This document shows, piece after piece, positions 2,236-41,500 of a DNA stretch of 64,000 bases. The stretch is from Okamejei kenojei (Eukaryota): the NCBI GenBank assembly GCA_035221665.1, contig CM069159.1:23870001-23934000 (forward strand), given 5' to 3'. The notes beneath the pieces were generated by a model. The model searched no databases and had not been told where the DNA came from. It worked only from the letters and a program-made list of their open reading frames with translations. Position 1 is the first letter of the stretch, and each line of letters opens with the position of its first letter. The translations under genes were made by a program, and so were the position numbers.

Positions 2236-3206
2236 TTCATTCGAGGTTCTTGACCATCATGGAGGAAATTGGAGGTTAATCCTTGGCTGACTGTGACACT
2301 GAGGTGCTGTGCAACTCACTGTTGTATGCCACCTCGCTCTTACCCAGCTTGAGCTCGGCTAATTCAACACATTGGACAAAATCTGGAACATTTATCATGA
2401 GTTTCATCTGTCAATGCCCAAGGGGAAGAAGAAGTGGTGATTTTATCTGTAGAAGGGTCTCGCCCCAGAACGTCACCCATTCCTTCTCGCCAGAGATTAA
2501 ATCAGCATCTGCAGTTCCTTCCAACACAAACAAGCCTTTTAGTGTCAGTATGACTAACAGCGTTATTGCTTGTGAAGTTTGCCTCATACAAATGGTTTGT
2601 GGTCTGATTAGATAGTTTCTACACAGACACAGCACAATCCCTGACGGGCTAACTGGTTCAAAAATATTGCTGTCATTAATAGCATTGAATTCAGTAGCGG
2701 TCAGTTATGCCTAACGCACAGCTGTGTCTGGACCGCATTGTGAGCTGAGTACGTTTTAGATAGTAGGTGCAGGAGGAGGCCATTCGACCCTTATTCATTG
2801 TAATCATGGTTTCGTCCGCTATCACATATCTCTTGACACTAAGAGCTCTATCCAACTCTTATTCTTATCTTCCAGGAAGCTTCCAGAAAGTTCCTGGCCC
2901 GTAATGTCACTTACCCAATCCTTCAGAGATGCTGCCTGACCTACTGAGTTACCCCAGCACTTCGGGTTTATTTTGTAAACCAGCATCCTGTGACCAAGTT
3001 TCTGTTTCTAAGGGGTATAAATGAACTAGGTGGGTTTTTATAACAACCCAGTGGCTTCAAGCTCATCGCTTTAATAGTGTTTGTTTTCTTAATCTATAGT
3101 TTTTAATTTTAGAAATGTTCTCATGTACATGATAAATGATTTTCATAAATGAGTCTCATGTAAATTCCTGTACTCCCGTGGTTTGATAGTCTAGGCTTCT
3201 ATGTTA

Positions 3207-23061: not shown

Positions 23062-24654
23062 TTAAGGGAGAGACTGATGGTAGTGTCTAAAGCATTGGAC
23101 TCTGCACAGCGGCACTTGACAAAACTCGCACATGAAGGAGGTCTCCACTGCTCTCCCGGACGCGGTTTTGCGCTTGCACCGCGAGCACTCCCGGCACACT
23201 TTCTTGCGCCCCTCAATCTTCACCATGTTGTGTGCTCTGGCGTTGCTGAAGCCCGCCTGGTACCTGGTTTCCGCCGACGAGGCCAGCCTGCCCTTCCTGC
23301 ACCCTCCCGCAGAGTAATCCCCACGCAGCATCTTGGCCAGCGCCGTCCTGAAGTTGAGGTGGTCATAGCGGCTGGGGAGCGGCGGGTCGTGAGATGACCT
23401 CTTGAAGATAAGCCAGGCATTGACGATGGTAATGTTCAATGAGAACCACAAGAGACACCTCCACCACTTTTTGGAAGGGCGACCCACGGGGTAATAGCTC
23501 CTCATTTGATCCGAAAGGTCAACGCCGCCCATGTACTTATTATACTCGGTGACCACCTGAGGTTTGACCACCCCCGAGCTGGCAATCATCTTGGTGCCTT
23601 GATTGTTTGACAGCGTGACTACCTGTCGCTTGTCCTTCCAGATGGTCAACAACAGCGATCCCTTCTGAAAGAACCGAACGTCGCCCTGTGTCTTGAGCTT
23701 CACCCTCCTGGCTTGTGCGGGGATGCCTCTGCGGGCGAGGTGTGCGGTGCAGCAAGCCCTGGTCCCTCGCTCCTCCAGGTGCTCCAGCAGGACGGGGCTT
23801 GCGAAGAAGCGGTCAAAGTACACGTGGTGGTGGCGGTGGAAGTAGGGACGACACAGCTCCAGCACCACGTCGTGCCCGGTGCCGTGGGGCGACGCCGGCC
23901 CCCGCCGCCCCGTGTACACCTTGAAGTTCAGGCAGTAGCCCGTGACAGATTCGCACAGCATCCACACTTTCACCCCCCACTTTGTCGGCTTGGCCGGGGC
24001 GTACTGCTTGAAATACAGCCGCCCTTTGTAAGCCACCATGCCCTCGTCCACGCTCAGGTCGCGGCCCGGGCGGTAGCTTTGGCCAAAGAGGCAGCGCACC
24101 ACCTCCATCAGGCCTCGGACTTTGTACACCGGGTCGTGCCCGGGGTCCGATCTGTCCAGGGCGCCCCTGTTGTCCCGGAGATGGAGATACTGGTTTAGTT
24201 TCCAAAACCTGTCTCTGGACATGGTAGAAGAGATCCATGGGCAGCGGAGGGAGGTGTCTTGGCTCCAGTACAGGGAGATGCGAGGCAGTTGCTTGATGCC
24301 CATCATGATGTTGATGGCGAGGAAAGCCTTGACTTCCTGGGACTCTGTGGGGGTCCAAGAGGAATCCCTTTTGCCTGCTTTCTCTTGGCACTGGGCAGCG
24401 TAGCGATTGGTTTCCACGGCTATGGTGTCGAACACAGCGTGTGGCCAGAGCAACGTGAAGTAATCCAGTGGGGTGGCGGTGCCTGGGAGCTGGTGCTGGG
24501 GGCCGCTGGGTTCAGTGAAGGGCGGCACATGAATATCTTGTAGATCAGTGGTCCACTCCACACCCTGATGCCCATCCGCCTCGTTCCCGATGGACGATTC
24601 TCTCTCTCCACGTCCCATATCCTCAGAAGACCTCACACCGCTCTCAGATTCCAT
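23062..24654 (-). CDS. piggyBac transposase / PGBD4-like protein, uninterrupted (530 aa from MESESG; ORF open to ATG at 24792)
   Basis: DDD triad in LSVDEGM, VYFDRFF and MGGVDLSDQ; KQYAPAKPTKWGVKVW motif; C-terminal cysteine-rich domain CRECSRC...CEFCQVPLCRVQCFRHYH. Confidence 0.93.
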   Translation of the reverse strand: MESESGVRSSEDMGRGERESSIGNEADGHQGVEWTTDLQDIHVPPFTEPSGPQHQLPGTATPLDYFTLLWPHAVFDTIAVETNRYAAQCQEKAGKRDSSWTPTESQEVKAFLAINIMMGIKQLPRISLYWSQDTSLRCPWISSTMSRDRFWKLNQYLHLRDNRGALDRSDPGHDPVYKVRGLMEVVRCLFGQSYRPGRDLSVDEGMVAYKGRLYFKQYAPAKPTKWGVKVWMLCESVTGYCLNFKVYTGRRGPASPHGTGHDVVLELCRPYFHRHHHVYFDRFFASPVLLEHLEERGTRACCTAHLARRGIPAQARRVKLKTQGDVRFFQKGSLLLTIWKDKRQVVTLSNNQGTKMIASSGVVKPQVVTEYNKYMGGVDLSDQMRSYYPVGRPSKKWWRCLLWFSLNITIVNAWLIFKRSSHDPPLPSRYDHLNFRTALAKMLRGDYSAGGCRKGRLASSAETRYQAGFSNARAHNMVKIEGRKKVCRECSRCKRKTASGRAVETSFMCEFCQVPLCRVQCFRHYHQSLP

Positions 24655-24848
24655 TACAATTTTAAAGCAGACCGGCCAATTGGACTTTTCTTCCCCCAAA
24701 CCCCAAAACGTTTGGTTCATTGACAGAACACATGCAATGTTCGACAATACCGCGCTGTGGGGGGGAAAAGAAGGTATAGTCAAAACGCGCATTTGATCTT
24801 TTCAATGGTGCCATGCCAGTAACCAGCTTAGAGAGAGTAACCAACAAA

Positions 24849-35500: not shown

Positions 35501-38500
35501 GACCAAAAGATTGGCCCAGGAGACAGGTTTAAGATGCATCTTAGTGAAAACAAGAAGGGTGCAATGGTTTTTGGGAGATATACAAAATATTAGGCATCTG
35601 TAGACACGGCTAACAAGGATATTGCAATCAACATCTGGGATGTGCAAAAGATCCAGTTGAAAATATATAAATGCTTTAAAGGACATTGAAGGTGTTGTTT
35701 ATAGGAAAACATTTGAAATTGTGCCAAAACTGAACCTTAAAATTTTTTAGTGTCCTTTCAACAATATCTTTACTAATGACCGAGACACTACATATAGAAA
35801 AAAAAAGGTTTGTCTTCACTGACAAACCAGATAAATTTTCAAAAATATGGTCTCTTTTTATTGACTTTCTTCAACAACATAATGGTTGAACACAAACTCA
35901 AAACCGATGGTAGGGTCGGGTGGGCGGGAATACGGAAGGGTCGTTGGACATATCTCCGCTTCTGTTACACCTTTTTTAGTTACGGGGTTTTTATTTTTCC
36001 TATTTTTCTTTATAAAAAAATGTTCTTTTTCTTTTCTTCTTCTTGTCCCTTTTTTTCCCATTTTCTTTTTTTCCTATCCAGTTATTAGTTGATAAAATGT
36101 TAAAACTGAAACAGTACGAACATTGTATAACTGTTATGTCGATCATTTTTTTTTGTACAATTGCTTCAAACAAAAATTAAAAAAAACAAATATATATATA
36201 TATATATACTTACACATACACATACACATACACATATACATATACGTATTTAATCCTTAGCCAACAACATTTTGACAATTCTGATGTTCTGTAACTAATG
36301 AATCTTGTTTAGAACAGTGACCACAGCACAAAGGTATTTCATAAACACCTCCATGTTGAAAATATACTACACATATGCATACCAGAAAGTGCAGGAAAAA
36401 ATCAAGAGGTCAGAGTCTGTTTCTCTCTTCACAAATGCTTCCAACCTGCTAATTGTTTCCAGTACTTTCTGGTTTTATTTTGGATTTCCAACATCTGAAG
36501 TTTTTTTATTTTCATTATAGAAATGCCTCATTTTACATTTTAAACCTAGCGTGCATCTTTTCTCTCATGAATTCGCAAGGAGCAGAGAATAATTCACTTT
36601 GAATTCCGTCTCAGATGTCCTGCCCCGCAGCAGCAAGAGGCCATTACGCACTCCACCGCACCCCAATCCCCCAGCCATGCAAAGTGAAACCACGCAACGC
36701 TCAGAATTTGGGCCGAGGGTCCAGAGAGAACAGGCAAAAGCTGGCAACCGGGTGAGTAGAGTGTGACTGCCATGTGCTGACATTCATTGTGTTATGTTGT
36801 TTCGATCCTGGGGAAGGGTCCAGGGCCACTGGAGAGTGGAATGGCCAAATTCTACACGCCAGGCAAAACAGGTGCAGCTTCACCAGTACCTTCTATGCTG
36901 TGACATAACAAACCTAGTTCTATACTCAATTCCCTGAGTGGTGAAGACCAACGCGCCAAAAGCCACCTTTACAATCCTATCTCCCTATCTATCTTTCAGG
37001 GAACTATGGATATGTACTCCTGGATTCTTCTGGTCTACAACACCGCCCAGGGTGCTACTGTTCAGGCAGCATCTTTGGAGAGAAGGAATTGGTGATATTT
37101 CGGTTCATTGGGTCTTGAAACGTCACCCATTCCTTCTCTCCAGAAATGCTGAGTTACTCTCCAGCATTTTGTGTCTACCTTTGATATAAACTAGCCTCTT
37201 ATTTCCTGTCTAGAAATGTACAGGAAGTTAACACCTAAAGGTTCACAGATATAGTGCGCAGGCCACCTGTGAGTCCATTATAGGACAGTGGCTGTTCCAT
37301 ACCACTCTTCTTCTTTCGTGAAGCGTACACAGCCTAAAGTTGTAGGACAACTTGTTCTATTTGATCTTCCGTTTGTGCACGTCGAGTTGATTGCATTAGT
37401 CGAAACAGGGCGGACCACGTGAAGGTTGCACTCTTCCACCCCTCCATACCACTGAACAAATGAAGAGATCCCAAGTGATTTCAGGCTATAGAGCTGTAGA
37501 GATTTCAGTGGTAGAGCTGCTGCCTTATAGCGGCAGAGATCCTGGTTCGATCTTGACCACGGGTGCAGTCTGTACGGAGTTTGTATGTTCTCCCTGTGAC
37601 TGTAAAGATTTTCTCCGGGAGCTCCAGTTTCCTCCCACACCCCAAAGACATACAGGTTTGTAGGTTAATTGACCGGTAAAAATGGTAAATTGTCCCTAGT
37701 GTGTTGGATAGTGTCAGTGTACGGGGTTAATCGCTGGTCGGCGCAGACTCGGTTGGCCAAAGGGCCGGTTTCCATGCTGTATCTCTATCAGGAGCTGGTT
37801 CAGGATGATAATGGGGACGACAGGCAAGGTTGGACCCTAGGACTGGACCCAATCTTTCATCAACAACTAAACTTTATGCCCTGCTGTATCCACTGCATTG
37901 TGTGGGCTGATGATGGGGTTGGAATTTAAGGCATCACTGGCAGAGTGCCTGAGTGCCCAAAGCCCACTGCTAGTTTCCAGATGGACGGAGATGATGGAAA
38001 GCATCAGGTAGGTAAACGGGAGAGGCCAACATTGGGGGAAAGTTTATCTCCCTTAACCGGATTTCCCTTCCACTCACCATTTGAAATAAATCTGAGTGGA
38101 AATTTAAAAAACGTTCATGCTGAAAATACAAAATGAAGCAGAAAATGTCATAAAGGCTCAGCAGATTACGCAGCATCTGTGGAAGGAGAAATATTAGTTC
38201 ACATTTGAGGTTGAAACCCCTTTGCCATAGGTTGTAGATCCTTCGACCTGAAAGATTATCTCAAAGATGCCTGACCTGCTGAGCATTCCCAGTATTTTCT
38301 ATCTAGGATTTATGTCTGCCAACAATTATTGAATGCTGGGTTATAAGTGGCACTCACTTCAAGACTCTGCATTAATGATGAGCAAACATTTCCATTTCTG
38401 TTCTTGTGCCATGTTGATGGGTTATTTCACATTGATAAGCCTCTGCAGGACCAACTTCACTCTAAATCTATGCACGCCAAGGCATTGACTCTAAAAGAAC

Positions 38501-41500
38501 GTCCAACGACAGTCCAGAAATGTCTCAAAGGTAGCCTACCGTCGAGTCGATCGAGTTCCAGAAGCAACGCCAGCTGCAAGGGTTGGAAGCCTGAGCCTTC
38601 AGTGAGACCTGGAGAACGCTTGACCGCATCAGGTGAAGCTCCCTAGTTTTCTGAGCCATTTCCTTTAGCTTTAAGTTGTTCGCTCCTTTGTTAATGGTGT
38701 TTTTGCACACCTCATGCTTTGGAATCATAGGATATGAATGGAGATGATAGTATCAGATGCAAGAGATGCGGTAATAAGTCCAAAACTGAAAGGTGGGAAA
38801 CTTTTAATGGAGGGGCATTCACAAGAAGCACTACCCTGGGATCTGCTTTATTTTCATTTACATTAACGACAGAGCAAAGGTTAGCTTATCTAAGTTTCCC
38901 ACTTCGAAAAGTGACCTGAGAGAAGGATACAAAGTGAATATGAAGAAGTTCCAACAGTTGTTAATTGAATTAGCAAGAAATTGGTAAATGGTGTATAATT
39001 CAGAGTGGCACAGTGGCGCAGTGGTAGAGTTGCTTCCTTACAACGCCAGAGACTCGGGTTCGATTCTGACTACGGGTGCCTGTCTCCTTAGAGTTTGTAC
39101 ATTCTCCCTGTGACCATGTGGGTTTCTCCAGTTTTCTCCCACACTCCAGAAATGTACAGATTTGTAGGTTACTTGGCTTGGTCTAATGGTAAATTGTCCC
39201 TGGTGTGTGTAGGACGGCGTTAGTGTACCGGGTTCGCTGGTCGGCGTGGACTGGGTGGGCCAAAGGGCCTGATTTGTACTGTATCATTGAACTAAACACT
39301 GATGTTATTCATTTTGGTGGGAAGAATAAAAGAATGGAACTAATTTTTGTCATTGATGAAAGACTAGAAAATGAGTTATTGAACGGTGCTGGGAGATGTG
39401 GCGGATTGGCTCATATTGCACGGAGACTGGATTGCAAGAGTAAGGAGATCTGAATATAACAAAAATTATGGAAGTACTCAGCAGGCGAGCTAGCACCTGT
39501 GGAAAGAAGCACATTTCGGACTGGTACCCTCTCGTCAAGACTGGGAAAAGTTTGAAGTAAATGTGTTTAGTGATGGTGGCAGGAAAGAATAAAATGGATT
39601 GTTTGCTTTAGCATGTAAGGCAGGACATAATGAGAGTGTGAAATGTTTAAAAGAAGGGAAGATTATCTCATTCAAATCAGAGGAGTGTGGGTGCAAAGCT
39701 GACAAGTACACATTTGGTTAATAGGTGTTTGAGGATCAGGGGAGAAGGGGCTCAGATATGGGGCTTGGATGGGTGATACCTGCTTCTGTTGCTAATGTTC
39801 TTATGACAATGCTGAAGAGAGGAATGTACATGGTTCCGAGAGCAGACCATTGTAAAATGATGTAGGCAGAGTGTGTGGATGAAAATATGGCTAAATTAAT
39901 CTGATGTGGGAATGTGTAAAGTCACCTTATTCAGACAAAGGAAGATAAATGGGAACATTGGAGACTGTAGCTCAATGACAGGACTTGCAGACAGAAATCT
40001 GGACCATTGACCCAGAGACACCAGTTCAAATTTCATCAGGAAATAAATTTGGAATTAAAGAAATATTCCCAGTGACGATACAACAACTGATTTTTGATTA
40101 AAACCCAACTGCTTTACTAATGTCCATCATCCACCCTGGCCTTTGTGACTTCAAGCCTATTAACTTGGTTGACTCTCAACTCAGTCCAAAGGTGAGGAGT
40201 GACATACGACAAATGGTGAAGATGTCCACACATAATGAATAAAAACCTTAAGTACAATTTCACAGAGTAATGGGACTTGGAGCTTAGTAGACATACATAT
40301 ATGTAAAATAAATATATAAGCAAATTAAATGTTGCCATTTACCTCAAGGAGTACAGACATACTAAGAAAAAAGAAATGCTTTCGTAACATAGAATATTGG
40401 TCAGACTCTATTTGGGGTACCATCATTGCCAACATATAGAAAGCAAGGGACCCAGATCTTTAACATTCTGTTTCTATTCTCTAGGATATCAATGTCCCCC
40501 GTATCAGAACAATATCCAGCAACCCACAAGAGAAGCGGAAATTCGTGAGAATTTCTGCAATATGCCAGAACGTGCAAAGCCCTTACCAGATAACTTAAAG
40601 TTCGAAGGTATGGCAAATTGAGCCACAGATAAGAGCAGGGTCCGGCAAAACAGCCCTTCTGTACACCATTCAGAGTGTACTTCAAGTGGGCTTTGTATTT
40701 CTCCATTGGTTCAAGGTCAGGGAGGTAAGAGCTGGATAATGAACAACAGTTATTCGCCATAAAATAGTCCCATGGTCGTCACACCTTGTGTTGGAAAATG
40801 CCTTGTCACATCATCATCTTCAGTTCCAGTTACAACACTGGATAGAAAAGGATTGTCTCATCAAACAATGATAACAATTTATTGCATAGCAACTCTAACA
40901 TTGAAATGCAAACAAGGTGCTTCACAGGCATCAACACTGGATAAAATGTATAAGTATATCATTGGTATAAAGCAGGATCTGCAGTTCATTTTTATTATAT
41001 GTTGCGTCACAGGCATGTTATCAAACAGAATTTAACACAGATTAGTCAGTTAACTATAAGGAGAGGGGAAGACAGATGGATTCATGGTGAGAATACTGGT
41101 TTGGAGCTTACATAGATTGAATGAAGACATAACGAACTGCAGAGGCTGGTTTATAAAAATGGCACAAATCGCTGGAGTCACTTAGCGGGTCAGGCAGCAT
41201 CTCTGGAGCATGAAGAAGCGTGATGTTTCGGGTCGAAATTTGTGAAATGGAGGACAAAAGACTGCAGATGCTGGTATCTTGAGCAAAAATCTATGGACTA
41301 AATGGACAATTGACGGTTTGGGTCAGGTCCTTTAGATTGACTCCAATTCCTTCCACAGATACTGCCTGGCCCACTGCGTTCCTACAGCAGTTTTGTTTTT
41401 GCTGAATAAATGTGTGAATGTTCATGTTTCAAAAATGAAAGTGACTGATATCTTTATATAGGTATAGGACTAGGTAGGCTAGGTAAAGACATGGACAGAT

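Follow-up and report, generated by a model that had tools for sequence, protein, structure and literature searches.

A 136-bp retroposon of a skate genome with a predicted minimal HDV-type ribozyme at its 5' end, and its likely Vingi-type partner

Introduction

The window analysed here is a 64,000-nt stretch of the genome of the skate Okamejei kenojei. Within an intron it carries a short insertion whose first 54 nt can be folded as a ribozyme of the HDV type. An initial annotation, made from the letters of the window, described this insertion as a promoter-less 'ribozyme SINE', mobilised by a Vingi/Ingi or RTE retrotransposon, that cuts itself out of host transcripts. The locus thus raises the question of what kind of element this is, where its two ends come from, and whether a ribozyme could account for its 5' end. 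Copies of the element are here called family 1, and related families in the same genome are numbered separately.

Results

The element and its insertion site

The features of the element and its surroundings are as follows (window coordinates).

37307..37442, minus strand: family 1 element, subfamily A, a 136-bp non-autonomous bipartite retroposon (sequence, copies, empty site)
37443..37453, minus strand: target site duplication (TSD) copy adjoining the first nucleotide, G1, 11 bp (direct repeat, empty site in organism B)
37296..37306, minus strand: TSD copy 3' of the tail, 11 bp (direct repeat, empty site in organism B)
37371..37442, minus strand: segment derived from a LINE 5' end, element nt 1-72 (86-88% to L122, L111 and L103)
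37351..37370, minus strand: middle linker of 20 nt, between the LINE-derived 5' and 3' segments
37307..37350, minus strand: segment derived from a LINE 3' end, with the last ORF codons, TAG stop (37336-37334), short 3' UTR and (AAG)n tail
37337..37353, minus strand: 7-bp hairpin across the junction of linker and 3' part
37324..37381, minus strand: predicted closing stem, 37381-37374 pairing with 37331-37324, which would join ribozyme and tail
36752..38445, plus strand: intron of the SAXO-like host gene, between mapped coding exons three and four

The host gene is a homolog of si:dkeyp-69c1.9, and PF05217 was found in three of six homologs; the closest named relatives of its protein are skate proteins (88% and 87%, one exon). 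It lies on the plus strand with exons on either side of the element (36614-36751 and 38446-38634), so that the element is indeed antisense within it. The initial annotation saw in this orientation a possible sign that sense copies are purged; at a single locus it has a chance expectation of 50%. A contig of organism B has the empty site, joining 37295 to 37443 and thus lacking the 136 nt and one TSD copy, while public contigs of organisms A and D have the filled junctions. The comparison fixes both ends of the element and its TSD, and agrees with the initial description of a 136-nt minus-strand insert between 11-bp direct repeats, in sequence as in coordinates.

There are no tandem repeats at 37307-37442, and scans with Rfam and tRNA programs gave no tRNA gene and no tRNA, 5S or 7SL match in the element, as the initial annotation had proposed. 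A classical SINE has a small-RNA head and Pol III boxes, but the head of family 1 is derived from a LINE. The element does have the dispersal, the TSDs of variable length and the simple-repeat tail of a non-LTR retroposon and, like a bipartite SIDE, takes both ends from one autonomous LINE and has no ORF. The term 'ribozyme SINE' is right in that this is a retroposon with an HDV-type fold, but bipartite non-autonomous LINE derivative is the better name, and these are of a known kind.

Two other high-copy repeats, with very high depth, flank the element. The repeat at 37490-37790 is presumably a tRNA-related shark/ray SINE, and that at 37055-37200 is a long hairpin drawing weak miRNA matches. 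Elsewhere in the window (23062-24801, minus strand) there is a 579-aa stop-to-stop frame, apparently unbroken, with DDE_Tnp_1_7 and zf-Tnp_2 matches, resembling a piggyBac transposase.

The predicted ribozyme head

The head of the window copy is parsed as follows, all on the minus strand.

37389..37442: predicted minimal P4-less HDV-like ribozyme, 54 nt (fold parse and descriptor)
37442-37436 with 37413-37407: P1; J1/2 at 37435-37434
37433-37427 with 37395-37389: P2
37426-37424 with 37416-37414: P3; L3 at 37423-37417
37406-37405: GU; 5-nt linker at 37404-37400; J4/2 at 37399-37396
37399: candidate catalytic C, element nt 44 (invariant in a nine-row alignment, and C in 114 of 119 copies)
37431: sporadic G for the majority T, element nt 12, breaking one P2 pair

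The head thus has the nested double pseudoknot of P1, P2 and P3 with a G1-U wobble, a putative catalytic C opening J4/2, and the conserved L3 and J1/4, with just five bases at the place of P4. A strict HDV descriptor run over both strands of the 64-kb window gave one match, with G1 at 37442 and the C at 37399, and so bears out the initial parse. When the catalytic C was set to U, A or G there were no matches in the window, and there were none in 150 first-order Markov controls of 64 kb.

Comparison with Rfam, suggested as a check in the initial annotation, gave a mixed result. A 101-nt scan matched CPEB3_ribozyme at 24.7 bits (E 5e-5), under the gathering cut-off of 35, and HDV-F-prausnitzii at 13.9 bits over 37442-37389, whereas a scan of 1.8 kb gave no ribozyme match and only miRNA and snoRNA noise. 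A further head (L129) scored 16.1 bits on CPEB3_ribozyme (RF00622), again below the cut-off. The z-scores from nested folding, a method without pseudoknots, do not stand out: the window copy has -0.2 and -0.9, and L007 has 0.6 and 0.0. This folding also offers an alternative pairing near P3, and the strict descriptor rejects 14 of 60 core-anchored copies.

The low Rfam scores, the reduction of P4 to 5 nt and the fact that cleavage is predicted from the fold would all suit an alternative in which the head of family 1, having lost P4, is a vestigial or protein-binding fold that does not cleave, its 5' end being set by transcription start or by recognition by the reverse transcriptase (RT). We regard this as unlikely, for reasons that come from the copies and from the related families described below.

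The mismatch in P2 reported earlier is present in the window copy but is not a property of the family, since nt 12 is T in 117 of 119 copies. It was also considered as a subfamily mark and rejected, being found in one of 119 unbiased copies.

Copies of family 1 and their 5' boundary

A 24-nt core has 6,828 exact matches in the genome and its reversed control none; a mutually exclusive 28-nt variant core has 1,424. The genome therefore contains at least 8,252 exact core matches, counts which are lower bounds and also take in LINE heads and other derivatives. In a DNA search of the genome with the element, 40 of 473 candidates were scored, and these were all near full length, at 95-100% identity. 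Sixty loci taken in order along contig 1 fall into two subfamilies of 31 and 29 copies, with median divergences from the column majority of 3.0% and 3.8%. The window copy has five differences from its subfamily majority, including the P2 mismatch. Variable sites at the level of the family are nt 8, 32, 42 and 45; these are places where the ribozyme model tolerates change, which argues against a fold that no longer cleaves.

The 5' boundary was analysed in 120 core-anchored loci, made up of the 60 along contig 1, 30 whose 3' parts are unusual and 30 that carry the variant core. The 5' strand of P1 (nt 1-7) stands at the start exactly in 91 of the 120, and with at most one mismatch in 111. Among 119 unique flanks, position +1 is G in 109 and conservation jumps there, while position -1 shows all four letters (T 62, A 20, C 19, G 18) with no excess of an extra G. 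Cap-derived extra G residues at 5' ends are known from L1 work, and the absence of such an excess would fit an uncapped template. A TSD adjoins G1 at 43 of 60 loci, compared to 0.75 per 60 when flanks are swapped, and the TSDs of these dispersed copies are about 8-15 bp long. Both the genome-wide copies and the shared start at G1 that had been predicted are thus observed. Contigs of run X15 (presumed RNA) contain family 1; these are contigs only, and show no pile-up of starts.

The partner LINE

The LINE from which the element is derived was found using a pattern anchored at the 3' end; an exclusion pattern anchored at the 5' end gave indel variants of the short element. The 3' pattern led to a 5'-truncated RT fragment (L079) whose 3' end is like that of the short element and which has 826 candidates. 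Of 20 LINE loci fetched, two are full or nearly full length: L122 (about 3.04 kb), which has a TSD, and L103 (about 3.10 kb), which is without the first 9 nt. Nucleotides 1-72 of the element match the LINE 5' end (L122, L103 and L111) and nt 93-136 match LINE 3' ends. What the short element keeps of the LINE at this end is therefore the last codons and the stop, followed by the 3' UTR and the (AAG)n tail. The autonomous partner with the same two ends that was sought is represented by L122 and L103. The 7-bp hairpin, correctly noted at the outset, is not present in the LINE and so was not inherited from its 3' end. The 20-nt linker was apparently built from a short duplication of letters of the LINE 5' UTR, for which L192, L209 and L457 may be intermediate forms. 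Further derivatives have other, independent breakpoints (L190, L205 and L463).

The ORF of the partner encodes an apurinic endonuclease (APE), an RT and a C-terminal CCHC motif, with profile matches to RVT_1 and, weakly, zf-RVT. Its closest intact relative, P0001 (75%), has 1019 aa with APE and RT and is without RNase H. A compact single ORF with APE and RT and no RNase H is how the Vingi clade is defined in PMC13708176, and Vingi-2_Gav of Repbase, a named element of that clade, has a head of this kind at its 5' end (PMC5786205 supplement). The partner is thus likely to be a Vingi element, a placement made from anatomy and head and not from a labelled RT tree. No labelled Vingi, Ingi or RTE proteins were found among the 120 matches listed or in the PDB, where a search gave R2 and group II intron RTs only.

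The C-terminal CCHC motif, present in the partner and its relatives, is not known from RTE elements. The named Vingi moreover shares the head architecture, and its head is almost the same in sequence as those of sister families with ORFs that match P0001. It is therefore very improbable that the partner is instead an RTE element or another LINE of the I group, even though RTE elements likewise have one ORF, no RNase H, a length of about 3.2 kb and bipartite derivatives (Kojima 2018). The initial proposal of mobilisation by 'Vingi/Ingi or RTE' is in this way narrowed to a Vingi/Ingi-type partner.

Among 101 scored candidates, every copy of the cognate LINE is broken or partial and none is intact; family 1 may hence be dormant, or it may depend on a sister LINE. 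Other Vingi-type families account for ten regions that hold long open frames, and none of these reaches a ribozyme head. The genome has at least three further LINE families of Vingi type with (AAG)n tails (L545, L548-L550, L546-L547 and L552-L554), which are 37-46% identical to P0001 and have open frames of up to 778 aa. Family 1 copies also lie inside Vingi-type LINE copies, including the partner itself (L110, rc 3065-3200; L007; L551).

Sister families and theta ribozymes

Other retroposon families of the same genome keep the register of the head (7/2/7/3/7/3/7/2/x/4/7) with different letters. In eight natural heads from five families, 131 of 136 helix cells are paired and 12 of 17 pairs have a two-sided change; across sister families and phage theta ribozymes together the register is kept, and both partners differ in 12 of 16 pairs. 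In a nine-row alignment that includes two theta rows, 96.5% of cells are paired and the covariation is 0.84, against 0.23 when shuffled and at most 0.16 when slid, and none of 500 shuffles reached that value; as the structure itself comes from the same sequences, these controls should be read with care. Paired letters thus change together across families, as the initial annotation had suggested checking. The catalytic C and the AA of J4/2 are invariant across families, which again speaks against a vestigial fold.

Family 2 (L479-L508, for example L481:1501-1705) is about 200 bp long and young, with 1,430 candidates, TSDs and a short P4; its head scores 32.8 bits on HDV-F-prausnitzii. It begins at G1 in 30 of the 30 best matches, a sample biased to full length. 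Its partner LINE was not found in the searches made, which included the ten regions with long open frames. Family 5 consists of P4-less, TSD-flanked elements of about 170 bp (L530-L533, L535 and L537). In the six copies seen the start is the second base of the predicted P1 and not G1, which a simple model of cutting at G1 does not explain and which would suit a fold that does not cleave.

The family 1 head has the P4-less minimal fold of theta ribozymes, and shares with them the layout of P3-L3-P3, GU, 5-nt linker and CNAA. Among pattern matches in metagenomes, a loose parser found folds of this layout in 51 of 112 and a strict parser in 16 of 112; among viral pattern matches the figures are 17 of 82 and 2 of 80. 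ARAGORN was run on 33 loci, and at 25 of them G1 is no more than 1 nt from the 3' end of a tRNA or tmRNA (hand count). A tblastn search found no Vingi ORF beside any of the 112 metagenome matches. These look-alikes are theta-type ribozymes, for which a cut site at the tRNA 3' end has been reported (bioRxiv 2023.06.13.544163). According to the same preprint, P4-less theta ribozymes are active in vitro, so that the lack of P4 in the family 1 head would not in itself preclude cleavage. Theta ribozymes are reported to be nearly 99% phage-borne, with none in the eukaryote genomes screened (Kienbeck 2024, PMC10879173). They differ from family 1 in lying after phage tRNAs, where family 1 has the motif at the head of a vertebrate retroposon, and the loss of P4 in family 1 was probably independent. 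As side observations, one theta-type ribozyme lies directly 3' of a tmRNA rather than a tRNA (L371:738-1183), and two IMG/VR core matches (L217 and L271) stand 117 nt from each other on one contig, possibly as tandem ribozymes.

The relation to the CPEB3 ribozyme

A search of the genome with RF00622 gave 59 scored candidates, of which 30 reach the gathering score of 35 bits, the best at 66.8; in 14 control genomes nothing was found above the cut-off. The passing heads (L509-L538) belong to several dispersed repeat families (for example C14:40547617-40547690 and C19:41379732-41379810), and two of them, L514 and L534, run directly into APE-RT ORFs matching P0001 (E 7e-37 and 4e-52). Compared by eye with the Rfam CPEB3 consensus, L510 is identical at 36 of 38 nt before P4. 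In the gharial element Vingi-2_Gav (nt 2-74; PMC5786205 supplement) the agreement, also by eye, is 35 of 37 nt on the 5' side of P4 and 11 of 11 nt on its 3' side, or 46 of 48 outside P4. The same supplement holds a decayed version inside a tRNA-headed SINE of the alligator (SINE2-1_AMi nt 61-127).

The letters of P1, J1/2, P2 and P3 vary freely among families. Since paired letters are free to vary, the identity between Vingi heads and CPEB3 is not forced by the fold, and the plain reading of the sequences is common descent of the CPEB3 ribozyme and the sister Vingi heads. Such descent would make the CPEB3 ribozyme of mammals the fossil head of a Vingi element; the context of the heads, multi-copy, TSD-flanked and linked to ORFs, would set the direction as from element to host gene. 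The mammalian ribozyme is single-copy, intronic and sense, and keeps P4. The resemblance of family 1 itself is in L3, GU, the G-rich start of P1 and the register, but its P1, P2 and P3 letters are different, its score is below the cut-off, and the sister families are far closer. The CPEB3 L3 loop noted initially is present in family 1; the initial annotation treated it as a shared motif, and the evidence points to descent of CPEB3 from Vingi heads. More generally, we think it probable that Vingi elements as a rule begin with an HDV-type ribozyme, that skate genomes have several ribozyme-only swarms, some with theta-like heads of 54 nt, and that CPEB3 is a Vingi 5' end domesticated from an intronic insertion.

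The literature covered, which includes PMC5753468, PMC4908430, PMC3391268, PMC10919898, PMC3277949 and two 2026 preprints, gave no link between Vingi and CPEB3 and no description of family 1. Older papers on Vingi and ribozymes (Kojima 2011; Ruminski 2011; Webb and Luptak 2011), Repbase/Dfam and the Vingi-1_Acar patents may hold part of it.

Discussion

A model for the propagation of family 1

With its bipartite origin, copy number, TSDs, sharp boundary at G1 and covarying helices, the element is very probably what internal deletion has left of a 3.1-kb LINE, itself likely a Vingi. It is short and non-coding and present in thousands of copies, and its first 54 nt form a predicted minimal HDV-type ribozyme that would cut before G1. 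We propose that a Pol II transcript reading through a copy, or starting nearby, would be cut at G1 by the head, releasing an uncapped RNA whose 5' and 3' ends would be brought together by the predicted stem. The APE-RT protein of the partner would bind the 3' end that stems from the LINE, together with the (AAG)n tail, and insert the copy by target-primed reverse transcription at a nick. Because the ribozyme would be recopied at each round, the 5' end would stay exact. The copy in the window itself is best explained as an old passenger, antisense in an intron and with one mismatch in P2.

The closing stem is a lead only. For families 1, 2 and 5, pairing is predicted between the stretch that follows the ribozyme and the one that precedes the tail, each family having its own sequences there, and in subfamily B the predicted stem is extended to 11 bp. 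In the full-length LINEs a stem between the 5' and 3' ends ranks third (L103) or falls outside the top six (L122).

An alternative concerns the step in which the element is promoter-less. The Pr77 head of L1Tc acts both as internal promoter and as ribozyme (PMC8256844; PMC4035085), and a tentative possibility is that the family 1 head does the same, transcription starting at or just upstream of G1 and the ribozyme trimming the product. Kojima 2018 argues that Pol II transcribes bipartite LINEs just as it does the parent elements, and transcription of its own would explain thousands of dispersed copies more easily. However, head letters differ at most paired positions across five families while the RNA fold is kept, which points to constraint on RNA rather than on a DNA motif, and there is no excess of G at -1. 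An internal promoter is otherwise compatible with our preferred explanation, differing from it in the promoter-less step.

Relation to known elements

Ribozyme-headed internal-deletion retroposons are already known, namely NARTc, RIME, SIDER and the R2 SIDEs. NARTc, RIME and SIDER have a poly(A) tail. R2 SIDEs were reportedly described by Eickbush in 2012 as ribozyme-headed derivatives of R2 by internal deletion; R2 is site-specific for 28S rDNA and has another type of nuclease, whereas family 1 is dispersed with TSDs. The elements of trypanosomatids resemble family 1 as short, internally deleted Ingi/L1Tc elements with an HDV-like head, L1TcRz-Pr77, which releases them from co-transcripts (PMC4035085). 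They differ in that the head has 77 nt with a P4, the host is a protist and promoter function has been shown (PMC8256844); the family 1 head is without P4. Non-autonomous Vingi derivatives such as the Vingi-1_EE families of the hedgehog, which arose by internal deletion (Kojima 2011 as cited in PMC5786205), are alike in being bipartite, 5' plus 3', derivatives of a compact, single-ORF, RNase H-less LINE.

Two things are new here. One is the predicted ribozyme without P4 that heads a retroposon of a vertebrate; the other is the set of sister heads, apparently of Vingi type, which lead into LINE ORFs and pass the Rfam cut-off for CPEB3, the best at 66.8 bits. P4-less HDV ribozymes, as predicted here, are in this way moved out of phages, and thousands of predicted self-cleaving sites are added to a vertebrate genome. 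Family 1 would be a natural minimal template of 136 nt for the Vingi LINE clade, a clade now in use for RNA-only gene insertion (PMC13708176). If the proposed history is true, Vingi heads are the outgroups of CPEB3 that Bendixsen 2021 called missing, and the CPEB3 matches in the sister families and in a crocodilian Vingi allow a direct test of where the best-known ribozyme of mammals came from.
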